From assembly GCF_011045215.1 (NCBI RefSeq), contig NZ_CP049201.1: a stretch of DNA of 64,000 bases; one strand, given 5' to 3'. The position numbers are program-made. This document shows positions 51,001 to 63,000 of the stretch, piece after piece (position 1 is the stretch's first letter; the number at the start of each line of letters is the position of its first letter). Origin of the DNA: Escherichia coli (lineage in GTDB: Bacteria; Pseudomonadota; Gammaproteobacteria; Enterobacterales; Enterobacteriaceae).

Positions 51001-54000
51001 AAAACATTATGAGAGGTTTTGTGAGCTCAAAAAAAGAAGAGAGCAAAATCCTGTTCACAGATTAAATGAAGCATTGCCAAGAAAGATAAAAGAACCCAAA
51101 AGTAAGAAAAAATTAGTAAAAGAAAGAGAAATCATTAACAGCAGAAAAAAACATAAACAGGAGCAGGGACCATCGCTGGCTGAACTTAATAAAAAAGTTC
51201 GTGAGATACTGAAAACTCCGGCATGGAGAACGCTGGAAACGAGAATTCGAAGAAATGGCATCACATTTAAGTCAAAAGCAGAGTTAGATGCGCTTTCTGA
51301 ACTTTATGCAATTTATTCATGGGTTTCATATTGCAAACGGGGCGATAATTATTCTGTGTGGTTTTTGAATTGTCCGGATGTAAATATAAATCTTCATGTG
51401 TGCGAATGCCGGTCTTCTGAAAGCGATTGTTATCTGCCATCCCGTTTTATTATCCTCCCAGCTCCATTAAGGCAAAAAGTAAAAAGAAAATACTCTGCTA
51501 ATTCGTCTGGGGTACCAGGACATAATGATTCAAAAAGTCTTTATAAGACAGTTTTGTCTGTTTGTGGTGGGAAAAGAGAAACCGAATTGTTCTTTTATTC
51601 ACTGCCAGTAAAGACTAATCATCATCCTTACTGGATTAAAAGTGGTGTGGTTAAAAGATTTTCTCCTGTTTTTGGTTTGTTGTTTTATGAGCAGGAAAGG
51701 TTAACAGGAGGTGTTTTTCGTTATGTGTTGATAAGGTTTTATAATACTTTTAAGGAGAATTTGTTTTTTGTTGAGATTGTCTCGTGCTGTTTTCTTGTTG
51801 AGCTTTTTCATGATATTGATTCGTTTTTTATAAATCAACGATTAAGTAAGCTTGAAAGTTTTATAGATAAGTGGAAGGAGGGTAAAGAAATCTGGATAAA
51901 AGCATATCTACAACTTATACATAATACATTGGGAATAACTGAAACAGAAAAACTCGTCAATCTATATAATTCATTTTTTACTGATAAAGTGGTTCTCTGG
52001 GATGAATCAGTAAAAAAAGTTAAGTGGATTTATGAGAAATAGTACCATTTAACTGAAAGCCACCATAACGTCTTTTTGATTACATTCATGATAATGCATC
52101 TCATTTTGTTTTCGTTTTTTTGTTCAGGGAAATTTTCCGAACATCAGTGATAATGAGGGTTTTGTTGTTTTTGTTTCTGCAATGTTTGAGGGCTGTTCCT
52201 GGAGATGATTCGTTGTTTGTGAGCAAGAGGTGGTCCGCTTTTCTGGACAAGTTTTGTATTTGTTGAGTGGTGAAATGGAAGTAAAAAGAGCCCCTTTCTG
52301 GCAATGACTGAAAAAGTCAGTAGCGTGTGACAGTAAAAACTAACATAAAGTGATTATCGTATGATTATGACAATAACTTATAACTTTTATGAAAAGAATA
52401 ACAGAAACTACGAGGCCATAGCAGATTCCTGAGATCATGTTTTCTGAGGTAGAGAAAATAATTCCAGAGTAAATCTGTTCTGTTTTTAGGACAGAAAACT
52501 CCATGTTGGCTGTAAAAGTGAAAAATCAACACCCAGTATGCATGGATGTCTGAAGATGTTGAGAATGTCGGTATGATACTATATACACATATTTTACTCA
52601 GTATTTTTACTAAGCATTTCAGTAAGTGTTATACACGTATTTTCATAAACAATTCTACAAGTGTTTTCATTAAGTATTGTTATACACATTGCTTTGTCTG
52701 ATACACATCCAGTTTAGTAAATTTGTTAGTCCTGTTTTTACGATAGCTAAAATCAGTTAACGTCACTACAAAACTCCCTGTCCTGTTTAAGCAGTCAATA
52801 TGCTATTCGATTTTACTGATGTTACATTTAACCTTTTATGAGTTTTCGTGTTTTTAGTCGTTAACCTGAGACAAGTGTTTTTATGTAAAACGCAAATCCG
52901 GCTGAGATAACCTGGCGTGATTTACTGTGTGCTTACGATGATTTTGTTAAATGGTTTTATAGATGATTTTGTAGCAATGAGATTGATGAGATGATTAACT
53001 GGCCCTGGTGTTTTTTCTCAGCGCAAGGTGATTATCTTCATCATAAGGCTCTTTTCAGGAAAAGCGTGATGATTGGTTCTGGTGTTTTGATTCAGATGAG
53101 ATTTACGTTATTGATGGTTAATCGTTTTTATGGTGTGTTGAAAAGTAACGTTTTCAGGATAAGAAAATCGATTCTGATATTGGTGGTTTTTGTTCTTGTG
53201 GCGGGGTTATCTGTAAACAGGTTTTAAGCGCGCTATTCGGCTCTGTGATTGAGTTGTGTGGTTAAGCTGTAGGTTTTGGTGTTGTTGTTGATTTACAGAG
53301 CCAGAAAGCGTTCTGATTGCGTTTTTGGTGTTTTGTTTGTACGTTCTGTGGATCCGTTTCCCTTCTGACTTTTCTCGTCGTCCATGTCGTTTTTAAATCC
53401 ATTCATGCTGTTGTTGCGTGTTTTGTTGTCGTGTGCAGGATTATCTTTTCGTTACGGGACGATTCATTCCGTTTTAATCAGGAGCTATTGGCGTTGCTCA
53501 TTGGTGGGATGCCGTAAAGTTTTACCGCGGCGATTAATGATGTGAAGTCAATCCAAATCAACGGAGATCTCTCATCATGAATCAACCAATACACAATGCT
53601 TACTGGTTATCCCGTTTTGAAAGTATTCTCAACAGTGACCTGGTGCAACACCTTGCCGTTTCGTTAATCCGGGTGGATTTACGTTTCCCTGAGTATATGC
53701 CTGCCAGCATCATGGATACCGATTTAGATTCAGCGGTGATTTCTCGTTTTTTCGAATCCCTGAAAGCCAAAATCCAGGCTTACCAGCGGAAAAAACGACG
53801 TGCCAACAAGCGTGTGCGTGCAACCACTCTGCGTTATTTCTGGTGTCGGGAGTTCGGCAAGATGTATGGCAGGAAACATTATCACGTGATATTACTGCTC
53901 AACAAAGATACCTGGTGCTCGCTCGGGGATTTCAGCGAACCATCTTCGCTGGCGACGCTGATCCAGCTGGCATGGTGCAGCGCTCTGCATCTTGAGCCCT

Positions 54001-60000: not shown

Positions 60001-63000
60001 GATGTGTGCGATCCGGAAGCCCGTTGCCTCGCCGGTAATCCCGGGTATCCCGGATCTGCAGGGCCGTTCTGAAAACACGGCTCAGCATCTTTCCCCGCAT
60101 TCGCACAACCTTCATAAATCTTACAGAGGATATTCTGACCATGTTGACCACAATAAGCCACGACAGCGTGTTGCTGCGTGCCGACGATCCCCTGATCGAC
60201 ATGAACTACATCACCAGTTTCACCGGCATGACCGATAAATGGTTTTACAGGCTGATCAGTGAAGGCCATTTTCCTAAACCCATCAAACTGGGTCGCAGCA
60301 GCCGCTGGTACAAAAGCGAAGTGGAGCAGTGGATGCAGCAGCGAATCGAAGAATCACGAGGGTCAGCAGCATGAAACGTGTTGGGATGCCGGTACGCTGG
60401 CAATGTGCGAAATGCCGGCGCTGGTATTGTGGAACCCGGCCCTGTCCCTGGTACCGGTTACTCTCCCGTTAACCTTCCTGGTGGTATCCTCCGGTCAGTG
60501 AACGGTTTGTCATCATTTCCTGACTGATTCGTCCTTCCGTTCTTATTGTTTGTAACTGGCATTACACCGGTGCAGGCGTGTTTTCCTGCGTGTCTGTACC
60601 GGATCAGTAAAATTCAACAGGATTCGAAAAGGAACATTTCGTGCAAATAACCGAAGTATTACTTTCAGAGCCGGGAGACATCCGGCGTTTTGTTCAGCAG
60701 GCGGTGGACCACTGGCCGCGTCTGCTGGCAGTCCACTTCACGCTCCATTCGGCTGAAGGAAACATCAACGGACAACAGGTTCAGACATTCTGTACTTCCT
60801 TTTACCGACAGGTACACGAACGTATTACTGAACGTAATCACACGGTCAGTCCATCATCGCCGATGGTATTACGCTGGCTGCGGGAACAACATGGAGGAGC
60901 AACAATACGATGCCTGTTGCTGCTCAGTCAGACGAGCATTTGCCATCCGCGAGCCAGTGCCACGGTTGATGAAGAATGTTCGCAACTGGTGGATTTACTA
61001 CAACAGACCTGGCGGGTGATAAGTACTGGTGGACAATGCCGGGGGGAAAGGTGTTTTATGGTTGTCCGGCCTGATACATCAGGCCAGTATGATGCGTTAA
61101 AAACAACGGCGATGTGTTTTACATCACCGGTGATGTCCACCACAATCCGGTGTGGCGTTACCGGCGATGATGACGAAACATTACGGCGCAGAGCGCTTTT
61201 CTGACTGCCACATCTGATTTCGGGTGTGTTTCGGCAAGGTTGTTCAGTAAGGCATTCCTTCGTAAAATCAGCCTGTTTTTTGCACGACGGAAACCGGCAG
61301 CCATGAAAATCTGTCTTTATCATACCCTGAATCCAGAGATCATCCCGGGCTATAAAAAATTTGCACAGGCCATTGCGGCTGATAACTTTGTTCAGGCTGA
61401 TGTTCGTAAAATTGATACCAATCTTTACCGTGCACGGCTCAGTATCCGGGATCGATTGCTGTTTTCGCTGTATCGTTATCATGGTGAAACTGTCTGCCTT
61501 GTACTGGAATATATTCGCAATCATGCCTATCACACTTCACGTTTTCTTCGCAAAAATGTGGTTATTGATGAAGACTGCGTACAACAACAACCTGTGCCGG
61601 ATCCTGTTGATATAGCGACTGAAACACTGACGTATATCAATCCGTCTCACGGGCGTTTTCATCGTCTGGATAAAATGTTGTCCTTTGATGATGAGCAGCA
61701 GGCGTTGTACGAACATCCGCTACCGCTGGTGATTGTGGGATCTGCAGGGAGTGGTAAGACGGCGCTGGTACTGGAAAAAATGAAGCAGGCCGCGGGTGAT
61801 ATACTGTATCTCAGCCTCTCCACATTTCTGGTGGAAAAAGCACGAACGCTTTATAACGCGTCGGGGGAAGGGAGTGATGCGCAGAATATTGACTTTCTGT
61901 CACTGACGGAATTCCTGGAAACCCTGCGCATTCCGGAAGGCCGGGAGGTGACCTTCAGGGCATTCAGCGACTGGCTGCCCCGCAACAGGACCACCGTTGC
62001 GCTGGGGTCTGCCCATACCCTGTATGAGGAGTTCCGGGGTGTGATTGGTGCGGCCGTTTCCGGCAACGGACCACTGTCCCGGGAGGTGTATCTGTCGCTG
62101 GGGGTACGGCAGTCGCTCTACAGTATGGATGATCGCCCGACGGTCTATGCCCTGTTCGAACGTTATACGGCATGGCTGAAACAGTCGCGTCAGTATGACA
62201 GTAATCTGCTCAGTCATCAGTACCTGCCGCTGGCAGAGCCCCGTTACGATGCCATTTTTGTCGATGAAGTTCAGGATATGACGCCTGTTCAGTTGCAACT
62301 GGTACTGAAAACATTGCGTCATCCCGGCCAGTTTTTGCTTTGTGGTGATGCCAGTCAGATTGTTCATCCCAGCTTTTTCTCATGGAGTTCACTTAAGAGC
62401 CTTTTTTTCCGGCAACACCAGGGGAACAATGCTGCCATTAATATCCTGCAGGCGAATTACCGTAACGGGCACCATATCACCGCACTGGCTAACCGTCTGC
62501 TGAGACTCAGACAGGCCCGGTTCAGCGCCATTGATCGGGAAAGCCACCATTTCGTCAGAAGCTGTGGTCAGACGGAAGGCGCAGTCCGGTTACTGGAAGA
62601 CCGGGAAGAAAACCGACAGGAGCTGAACACCAAAACCTCACGTTCGAATCGGGTGGCGGTCATTGTGATGCATCCGGAACAGAAAGTACAGGCACGTTGC
62701 TGGTTCAGTACACCGCTGGTTTTTTCAGTTCAGGAGGTTAAGGGGCTGGAATACGAAACGGTGATCCTCTACAACATGGTCAGCGGTGTCCGGCAGGCGT
62801 TTGATGATATCTGTGAGGGGATTTTTCTGGCGGATCTTGAGGGTGAGTCCCGTTATTCCCGTCCGCGGGACAGGCAGGATCGTTCAGCGGAAATCTACAG
62901 GTTTTTTATCAATGCGCTGTATGTTGCGTTCACCCGTGCCACGCACAACGTGTATCTTGTTGAACAGCAGGTGGCGCATCCGTTGTGGCGCCTGCTTGCG

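Follow-up and report, generated by a model that had tools for sequence, protein, structure and literature searches.

The 64,000-nucleotide stretch of the Escherichia coli contig NZ_CP049201.1 analysed here (hereafter the window) contains the conserved backbone, serving regulation and mobilisation, of an integrative island that is very common in E. coli and resembles the cryptic prophage CP4-57 of strain K-12. At its centre stand four genes, termed g1 to g4, whose products are tied to the YagK/YfjJ ("Gp2-like") HUH-fold superfamily with a certainty that decreases from g1 to g4. They are accompanied by genes for an AlpA-family regulator and a helicase-like YfjI protein, and by a leader element that occurs twice. 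In the reading that we cautiously favour, AlpA, an optional YfjI and four anciently diverged HUH-fold members would constitute a nickase/helicase module with non-catalytic paralogs and a shared operator. The locus is ordinary in its occurrence, and three of the four genes already bear names in RefSeq. Three elements are new: the "hypothetical" g3 is assigned to the HUH-fold YagK/YfjJ superfamily, the four paralogs are divided into an intact and a degenerate pair, and the conserved leader footprint is defined. The features concerned are the following (window coordinates).

53514-53584, plus strand: leader copy 1, composed of the quasi-palindrome GTAAAGTTTTACC, then TTAATGATGTGAA, then TCAACGGAGATC
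53577-54308, plus strand: g1, 243 aa, ATG start (open reading frame list)
54462-55058, minus strand: remnant of an IS110-family transposase gene, frameshifted and truncated (mapped from the collinear RefSeq locus L001, 13163-13759)
55479-57083, plus strand: yfjI homolog, encoding a helicase-like DUF3987 protein of 534 aa (PF13148, E=3.3e-73)
57084-58672, no strand: AT-rich spacer 5' of g2 with 31-39% GC and without a long open reading frame (composition profile and open reading frame list)
58673-59239, plus strand: g2, 188 aa, ATG start (open reading frame list)
59258-59337, plus strand: footprint of leader copy 2, 80 nt, non-coding
59497-60072, plus strand: g3, 191 aa, ATG start (open reading frame list, RefSeq and conserved N-terminus)
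60141-60374, plus strand: gene for an alpA-family helix-turn-helix regulator or excisionase-like protein, 77 aa (PF05930, E=1.2e-10)
60641-61204, plus strand: g4, 187 aa, GTG start (open reading frame list; same start as in a 100%-identical RefSeq protein)

The positions that a preliminary description of this DNA had assigned to the four genes were confirmed: open reading frames encoding 187-243 aa lie there on the plus strand, all within 7.6 kb. Its wording of four tandem genes in a row does not fit, as the order is g1 ... yfjI ... g2 g3 alpA g4. The 4.4 kb between g1 and g2 are taken up by the IS110 remnant, yfjI and the 1.6-kb AT-rich spacer, and alpA is placed between g3 and g4. For g3, the mechanically called frame opens at a TTG at 59467, while the N-terminus MNAIPYF and RefSeq support the ATG at 59497. 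The remnant call agrees with two broken minus-strand frames (54593-54802 and 54836-55042), and the yfjI product also matches PHROG 2373 "DNA helicase" (E=1.4e-41).

The assignment to a CP4-57-like integrative island follows from the neighbouring gene blocks, both in the window and in annotated relatives. According to Pfam matches in the window and collinear RefSeq loci, AlpA, YfjI (DUF3987) and a YfjJ-type protein co-occur with a block of GTPase, DUF932, antirestriction, RadC and YeeU-CbtA genes. One flank of the annotated relatives carries genes for a GTPase, DUF932, antirestriction, RadC, DUF987 and YeeU/CbtA proteins, and the other harbours ProQ/FinO and H-NS genes followed by cargo. On the minus strand of the window, AbiEii, DUF4942, DUF932, WYL regulator and GTPase genes come directly after the type II secretion gene gspM. 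An apparent island boundary lies at 40196-40551, where gspM/yghD ends (40196) and the AbiEii toxin gene (40551-41498, minus strand) opens the island block. A search for tRNA genes in the 64-kb window found none, and the integrase end of the island lies outside it.

Prevalence was counted over 5,426 complete E. coli genomes. Some form of the 8.2-kb segment occurs in 3,255 of them, and the best chromosomal match is 91% identical over 95% of its length. The segment (53300-61500) is a mosaic: no complete E. coli genome exceeds 91% identity over the full 8.2 kb, yet single parts of it have much closer counterparts, as detailed below. Leader 1 with the start of g1 was found at 2,498 places in 1,873 genomes, the g2-g3 spacer with leader 2 at 2,503 places in 1,877 genomes, g2 at 1,974 places in 1,588 genomes and g4 at 5,790 places in 3,232 genomes. 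The module is therefore present at about 2,500 places in approximately 35% of the genomes, with up to 6-8 copies in a single genome. Four copies had initially been regarded as more than expected; given the same set at ~2,500 places in ~1,870 genomes, four genes are instead the normal state of this island type, and K-12 CP4-57 represents a reduced case. The latter shares with the window AlpA (PF05930), YfjI (DUF3987) and YfjJ (PF11726) encoded on one strand of a tRNA/tmRNA-associated integrative element. It differs in having a single YfjJ-type gene instead of four superfamily members, two of them without catalytic residues, in its gene order (alpA-yfjI-yfjJ), and in lacking a leader element upstream of yfjJ. 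The K-12 and window AlpA proteins resemble each other over 31 residues only.

The islands vary in composition. In the related loci L006 and L009, g1 is directly followed by leader 2, g3, alpA and g4; L007 has the same order, with g4 replaced by insertion-sequence fragments, and L008 is devoid of g1. L001 and L005 show the form of the window, in which the IS110 remnant, yfjI and g2 are inserted. In L002, from a metagenome-assembled Enterobacteriaceae genome, a Thoeris ThsB (TIR) gene (5768-6523, minus strand; PADLOC E=3.6e-128) takes the place of the IS110 remnant and yfjI between the g1 and g2 homologs. The yfjI homolog is hence optional cargo, missing from L002, L006, L007 and L009. As ThsB can replace it together with the IS110 remnant, the DNA between leader 1 and leader 2 behaves like a hotspot for cargo or defence genes, which holds either nothing, the IS110 remnant with yfjI and g2, or ThsB with g2.

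Kinship to the YagK/YfjJ proteins was assessed mainly against PF11726 (the YagK/YfjJ family, formerly Inovirus_Gp2 or DUF3296; gathering cut-off 25.8 bits) and PF23343 (REP_ORF2-G2P; gathering cut-off 27.8 bits). Judged by sequence, g1 is an unambiguous member: it matches PF11726 with 129.1 bits (E=2.1e-37) over profile positions 3-170 of 170 and PF23343 with 34 bits (E=2.9e-8), and it is 36% identical to K-12 YfjJ. Its residues ~150-195 form a Ser/Asp/Pro-rich insertion of ~45 residues (SRRTSFRQPTSSDAPPSSDDTPLPGGCSDTRKASDKKSGG), found neither in K-12 YfjJ nor in the other three paralogs and probably disordered. The g2 product scores just under both cut-offs (PF11726, 23.0 bits, E=8.3e-5; PF23343, 25.1 bits, E=2.2e-5). 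Homologs at 38-94% identity occur in Escherichia, Salmonella, Citrobacter, Enterobacter, Klebsiella, Serratia and Xenorhabdus. Most of these contain PF23343, several PF11726 too; in the precomputed annotation, a relative at 94% identity and many at 38-60% bear PF11726.16 and/or PF23343.3. These homologs are named "inovirus-type Gp2" or "rolling circle replication-associated protein", and the RefSeq names for g2 itself are "inovirus-type Gp2" or "YagK/YfjJ domain-containing". At the family level, its sequence places g2 in YagK/YfjJ.

The case for g3, "hypothetical" in all RefSeq records inspected, is transitive. Its own match to PF11726 (12.1 bits, E=0.19) is below the cut-off. A word-indexed and an exhaustive HMMER search of 1.84 billion representatives retrieved, apart from E. 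coli-type copies, only two full-length relatives at 32-34% identity. One relative, P0198 (34% identity to g3, E=2e-12), matches nearly the whole PF11726 profile with 41.8 bits (E=1.4e-10). In addition, hhalign aligns the g3-family profile with g1 (85% probability, E=6e-6), and the predicted fold resembles parvovirus NS1 and adeno-associated virus (AAV) Rep. On these three lines we accept g3 as a divergent YagK/YfjJ member with a putative HUH-type fold.

For g4, the weakest case of the four, a highly divergent HUH-fold paralog is probable. The PF11726 match of the window protein (14.6 bits, E=0.031) is again under the cut-off, and four of 60 g4 alleles match the profile (best E=0.0032). A hidden Markov model (HMM) trained on g1-, g2- and g3-family sequences, with g4 excluded, scores the window g4 at 7.7 bits (p=1.3e-4) and its best allele at 11.2 bits, compared to a maximum of 4.9 bits among 1,000 shuffles; g4 thereby falls within the range obtained when g2 or g3 is likewise left out. 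Conversely, the g4 HMM aligns P0198 over 128 residues (p=3e-5). The predicted fold is HUH-compatible. A 100%-identical protein is called "inovirus-type Gp2 protein" in RefSeq, and other alleles are named "YagK/YfjJ domain-containing" or "UCP030791 family". The g4 homologs also bear PF27752. A scan of genome contigs for g4 relatives returned two loci only, so that the family is essentially restricted to Escherichia in that collection.

One could object that g3 and/or g4 are unrelated, fast-evolving island ORFans, whose likeness reflects chance and a very common α/β (RRM/palm-like) fold. The bare Pfam E-values just given speak for this, as do the shallow g4 family alignment (effective sequence number, Neff, 1.4) and the fact that hhalign finds no significant match of the g4 family to g1, g2 or g3. 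However, independent g4 profile tests converge on the same register over more than 110 residues with p ~1e-4 to 1e-5 and beat all 1,000 shuffles. Moreover, g4 is the top match of the g4-free HMM when compared with the 211 other stop-to-stop open reading frames of the window; its weak BFVD matches repeatedly include Rep, NS1 and "Inovirus Gp2" entries; and the identical protein is already of Gp2 type in RefSeq naming. We therefore consider an ORFan origin distinctly unlikely.

Taken together, the initial claim of Gp2/YfjJ paralogy holds as superfamily kinship, firm for g1 and probable for g4, but not at the level of direct similarity: pairwise BLASTP among g1-g4 gave nothing significant, and g3 and g4 stay under the PF11726 cut-off. 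In a joint alignment of family representatives, mutual identity amounts to 17-20%; the alignment is collinear across the four families, with shared blocks and two Trp common to all. Between the shallow family profiles, hhalign is significant for g3 versus g1 only; the pairs g2-g3, g2-g4, g3-g4, g4-g1 and g2-g1 are not, with consistent registers throughout. NCBIfam and PADLOC contain no matches for g1-g4, PHROGs yield unknown-function or weak replication-initiation families for g1 and g2 only, and a sequence search of the PDB returned no solved relative.

Catalytic residues divide the four proteins into two pairs. The peptides HYHVILL (g1), HAHAVFW (g2) and EYHVVLC (g3), previously noted as a recurring HUH-type motif, are present; none had been given for g4, where the aligned position reads TIRCLLLL. 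In the motif columns, which are provisional in an alignment at 17-20% identity, the HUH position is HYH in g1 (H101-Y-H103) and K-12 YfjJ, HAH in g2 (H86-A-H88), EYH in g3 (E92-Y-H94; CYH or FYH in relatives) and IRC in g4 (I89-R-C91). The HUH motif proper, a pair of His on a β-strand with a hydrophobic residue between them, is thus found in g1 and g2, not in g3 and g4. At the position of the catalytic tyrosine, in a YxxK motif on a helix after the sheet, g1 has YLVK (Y213-LV-K216), K-12 YfjJ YMTK and g2 YLAK (Y156-LA-K159); g3 shows an invariant Asp162 and g4 Cys160 or Ser. A conserved Tyr150 of g4 lies ten residues upstream of the catalytic column and is out of register. Among 22 diverse g2-family members, E78, H86-A-H88 and Y156-x-x-K159 are invariant.

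Purifying selection acts on each of the four genes. Ratios of nonsynonymous to synonymous divergence (dN/dS), computed against five to six island alleles, range from 0.12 to 0.52, with 0.29-0.41 for g1, 0.14-0.19 for g2, 0.12-0.22 for g3 and 0.37-0.52 for g4; the value for alpA is 0.03-0.20. As they retain both HUH and the YxxK tyrosine, g1 and g2 apparently are competent single-strand DNA nickases. The genes g3 and g4 are devoid of both motifs and yet selected for; they are thus maintained, but a nickase function of their products is very unlikely. The earlier suggestion of roles other than replication, such as regulatory ones, therefore suits g3 and g4.

It had also been proposed that the four genes arose by repeated duplication or recombination. 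A recent tandem amplification within the island, with the extra copies acting as decoys, could account for the location of all four genes on one strand within a short distance and for a leader duplicated at ~72% identity. This scenario is hardly tenable, however, in view of the low protein identity and the absence of a BLASTP signal. Relatives of g2 at 38-60% identity occur in Citrobacter, Enterobacter, Klebsiella, Serratia and Salmonella. Both g3 and g4 constitute families of their own, and thousands of island copies have this set of four genes as a fixed feature. The leader likeness stops ~10 nt into g1 with no coding similarity alongside. Recent duplicates of one island would be expected to cluster apart from their counterparts in other genera, and the data show the opposite. 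An ancient divergence of the four families is hence preferred.

The leader itself was confirmed as noted before g1 and ~165 bp upstream of g3. The pattern TTAATGATGTGAA-N(5-10)-TCAACGGAGATC occurs exactly twice in the window (53534-53569 and 59301-59331), with zero occurrences expected from 100 shuffles, and loosened half-patterns revealed no extra copies there. Repeat extension and pairwise alignment lengthen the match to ~70 nt, in which 53514-53584 and 59281-59346 are ~72% identical and differ by one 5-nt indel. Both copies are direct repeats in the same orientation, one located 5' of g1 and the other 5' of the g3-alpA-g4 group. In copy 1, the ribosome-binding site of g1 is provided by a GGAG, and the element extends into the first g1 codons. 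Almost all genomes conserve it at 95-100%, though synonymous divergence of g1 is 0.13-0.27 among the alleles compared. Copy 2 is not followed by a start codon; 166 nt separate the end of its pattern from the ATG of g3. Between two island haplotypes, the block 59258-59337 is 89-95% identical and the next 170 nt are 43-48% identical, before conservation returns at the g3 ribosome-binding site, 3' of the diverged spacer. The 3' ~65 nt of leader 2 (59281-59346) are paralogous to leader 1, and the conserved block runs 23 nt further upstream. As an additional observation, the spacer exists in two essentially unalignable versions (window 59338-59480 versus L005 8140-8310 and L006 8085-8255; 43-48%), and that of L005 and L006 includes a 150-nt "hypothetical protein" annotated on the minus strand.

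These features raise the question whether leader 2 is simply what is left of the 5' end of a g1-like gene, without a function and with its similarity preserved by gene conversion or recent recombination, at a site where modules recombine. The likeness indeed spans the ribosome-binding site and the first ~10 nt of g1 coding sequence even though copy 2 has no start codon, and the two unrelated spacer versions 3' of leader 2 mark a recombination breakpoint. On the other hand, leader 2 is conserved across haplotypes whose flanks have diverged beyond alignment, and its conserved block extends upstream of the part shared with leader 1. Both copies are present in all six variants compared (window, L001, L002 and L005-L007), each with its own diagnostic differences. 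Those of leader 2 from copy 1 are retained in all six loci, which indicates independent maintenance and not homogenisation. A relic is therefore unlikely, and the pattern of conservation marks leader 2 both as a phylogenetic footprint and as a recombination boundary.

Within the leader, a quasi-palindrome (GGTAAA-N3/4-TTACC) precedes two invariant boxes, an arrangement that suggests a protein-binding site. A recognisable RNA was considered and rejected. Minimum free energy z-scores are -1.4 to +0.2 on either strand and the pairings differ between the copies, so that no structured RNA is supported, and Rfam gave no match to the leader at the gathering threshold or at E<=1. A likeness of leader 1 to the f1 origin (TTAAT ... 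TCCAAA) does not extend to leader 2 and was regarded as coincidental. A scan of viral contigs for the leader, with one locus, and a search for its palindrome near K-12 intA/alpA were both uninformative.

These data can be combined into a model in which AlpA would promote excision of the island, after which g1 and/or g2 may nick an island-specific site. YfjI could then act as the helicase, starting rolling-circle-type replication or mobilisation of the excised island. By analogy to systems that combine an HUH Rep with a superfamily 3 (SF3)-type helicase, g1/g2 nickases and YfjI would thus together replicate or mobilise the element. The g3 and g4 proteins may bind DNA as non-catalytic partners or act as regulators, with site recognition or repression as possible tasks. 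Conceivably, the shared leader is an operator or recognition site common to both units, through which their expression is coupled.

Several observations weigh against this model. Both yfjI and g2 are missing from many island variants, so that neither can be essential to the module. Neither leader copy contains a σ70 consensus promoter. The literature yielded no published experiment on any YagK/YfjJ protein. The search for family members serving as the only Rep of a small plasmid found none: the matches are on large plasmids (>=31 kb) or on megabase records filed as plasmids, with no small rolling-circle plasmid among them. Nor was a member found in an inovirus among 50,697 phage records. A replication role is thus assigned by analogy only. 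The tblastn search of these phage records with g1 and g2 returned, besides two Acinetobacter records, solely a 4.5-kb E. coli "phage" contig (OR844780) that is unverified, unannotated and of low coverage and was disregarded.

The "inovirus" label is accordingly a naming legacy. With gpII, the replication initiator of filamentous phages (inoviruses) from which the name derives, g1 and g2 share a weak profile link to PF23343 "Replication-associated protein ORF2/G2P", and g1 also one to PHROG replication-initiation families. The proteins described here are half the size of inovirus gpII, and the neighbours are island backbone genes with no inovirus genes nearby. A further comparison is with the HUH endonuclease domains found in Rep proteins of viruses (parvovirus NS1, AAV Rep and rudivirus SIRV1 ORF119), with which g1 and g2 share HUH and YxxK in the same order, first on a strand, then on a helix. 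Yet sequence similarity to these is not detectable (5-12% identity in structural alignments), and there is no fused SF3 helicase, YfjI being encoded by a separate, optional gene. Furthermore, g3 and g4 are without catalytic residues, and nicking by g1 and g2 is a prediction.

Comparable gene sets have been listed elsewhere. The Shigella SRL pathogenicity island contains three Gp2-family open reading frames, a Vis/AlpA-type regulator and a YfjI-like protein (PMC6980539), and in Pseudomonas intY/alpA islands, alpA and a gene for a Gp2-like protein were proposed as core genes of transducible islands (bioRxiv 10.1101/2024.08.29.610337). The resemblance to both rests on annotation; intact and degenerate paralogs are not distinguished there and no cis element is reported. 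Mentions of these genes in the literature on the SRL and Pseudomonas islands are at the annotation level, and no functional study was found.

A more far-reaching role of the leader can be envisaged, in which its copies are cleavage and joining sites (ori/ter-like) of HUH nickases, and g1 with its cargo a rolling-circle-type exchangeable cassette within the island. The direct repeats bracket g1 and the segment that varies between islands, and predicted intact nickases are encoded within this bracketed segment. HUH enzymes usually act on sites adjoining their own genes. Against this stands that leaders 1 and 2, found at 2,498 and 2,503 places, apparently always occur together, with no trace of a cassette on its own or elsewhere. 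All cargo variation is at one point 3' of g1, as expected from an ordinary indel hotspot. The leader shows no significant hairpin, and a regulatory role equally well explains copy 1, which overlaps the g1 ribosome-binding site and start. Such a cassette is therefore very unlikely. We give even less credence to the fuller version, according to which the leader is the site of the island's HUH-fold proteins, with g1 and g2 cutting and rejoining at its copies and g3 and g4 as binding or regulatory subunits under AlpA control. If it were true, the stretch from g1 to leader 2 would be a rolling-circle-type exchangeable cassette loading defence or cargo genes (ThsB, or yfjI with g2) into a chromosomal island, and hence a form of intra-island gene capture whose mechanism is undescribed for these very common E. 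coli islands.

For the preferred nickase/helicase module with its shared operator, the wider relevance lies in the islands themselves, which occur in a third to half of sequenced E. coli and whose cargo includes virulence, resistance and anti-phage genes. The locus offers three handles, i.e. the degenerate g3, the pairing of apparently active and inactivated but selected members around AlpA, and the 70-80-nt element before both units, all of which bear on how such islands replicate, move or acquire cargo.

Several further observations concern the immediate surroundings of the four genes. AT-rich tracts at 50800-53200 and 57200-58400 (31-35% GC versus ~50% in genes) lie 5' of g1 and g2, respectively, and the intervals 52043-53576 and 57084-58672 contain no long open reading frame. 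These tracts are candidates for H-NS-silenced regulatory regions or unannotated RNAs. An open reading frame of very low GC (50912-52042, plus strand, 376 aa) has no Pfam, NCBIfam, PHROG or PADLOC match; related E. coli islands harbour at its position, after and diverging from the GTPase gene, a "hypothetical protein" of 314-407 aa, in one case frameshifted. An unsupported antisense frame (59754-60269, minus strand, 171 aa) covers the last part of g3 and the first part of alpA; it probably arises artefactually from the high GC content of the coding strand opposite.

Immediately downstream, an open reading frame on the plus strand (61240-64000) begins 36 nt after g4, encodes at least 920 aa within the window and continues past its end. 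Its product joins a UvrD-like superfamily 1 helicase core to ankyrin repeats, and many GajB-type helicase models of PADLOC match it (best E=3.7e-12); the homolog in strain C5 is a 970-aa "ankyrin repeat domain-containing protein". Possibly, this gene is anti-phage cargo. Between the DUF932 and GTPase genes, a frame without family match (47616-48917, minus strand, 433 aa) adjoins the WYL/helix-turn-helix regulator gene (48960-49640, minus strand), a pairing often seen in defence loci. Close relatives of individual parts are scattered: the 214-kb "plasmid A" of E. coli strain C5 carries g4 at 100%, the g2-g3 spacer at 97.8% and the g2 protein at 98.4% identity, and the g2 gene is 99.1% identical to that on another E. 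coli chromosome (strain HNSQ2209). Finally, the chromosomal part of the window contains a full-length match to the small RNA C0719 (21079-21300, minus strand; Rfam RF00117, 299 bits).

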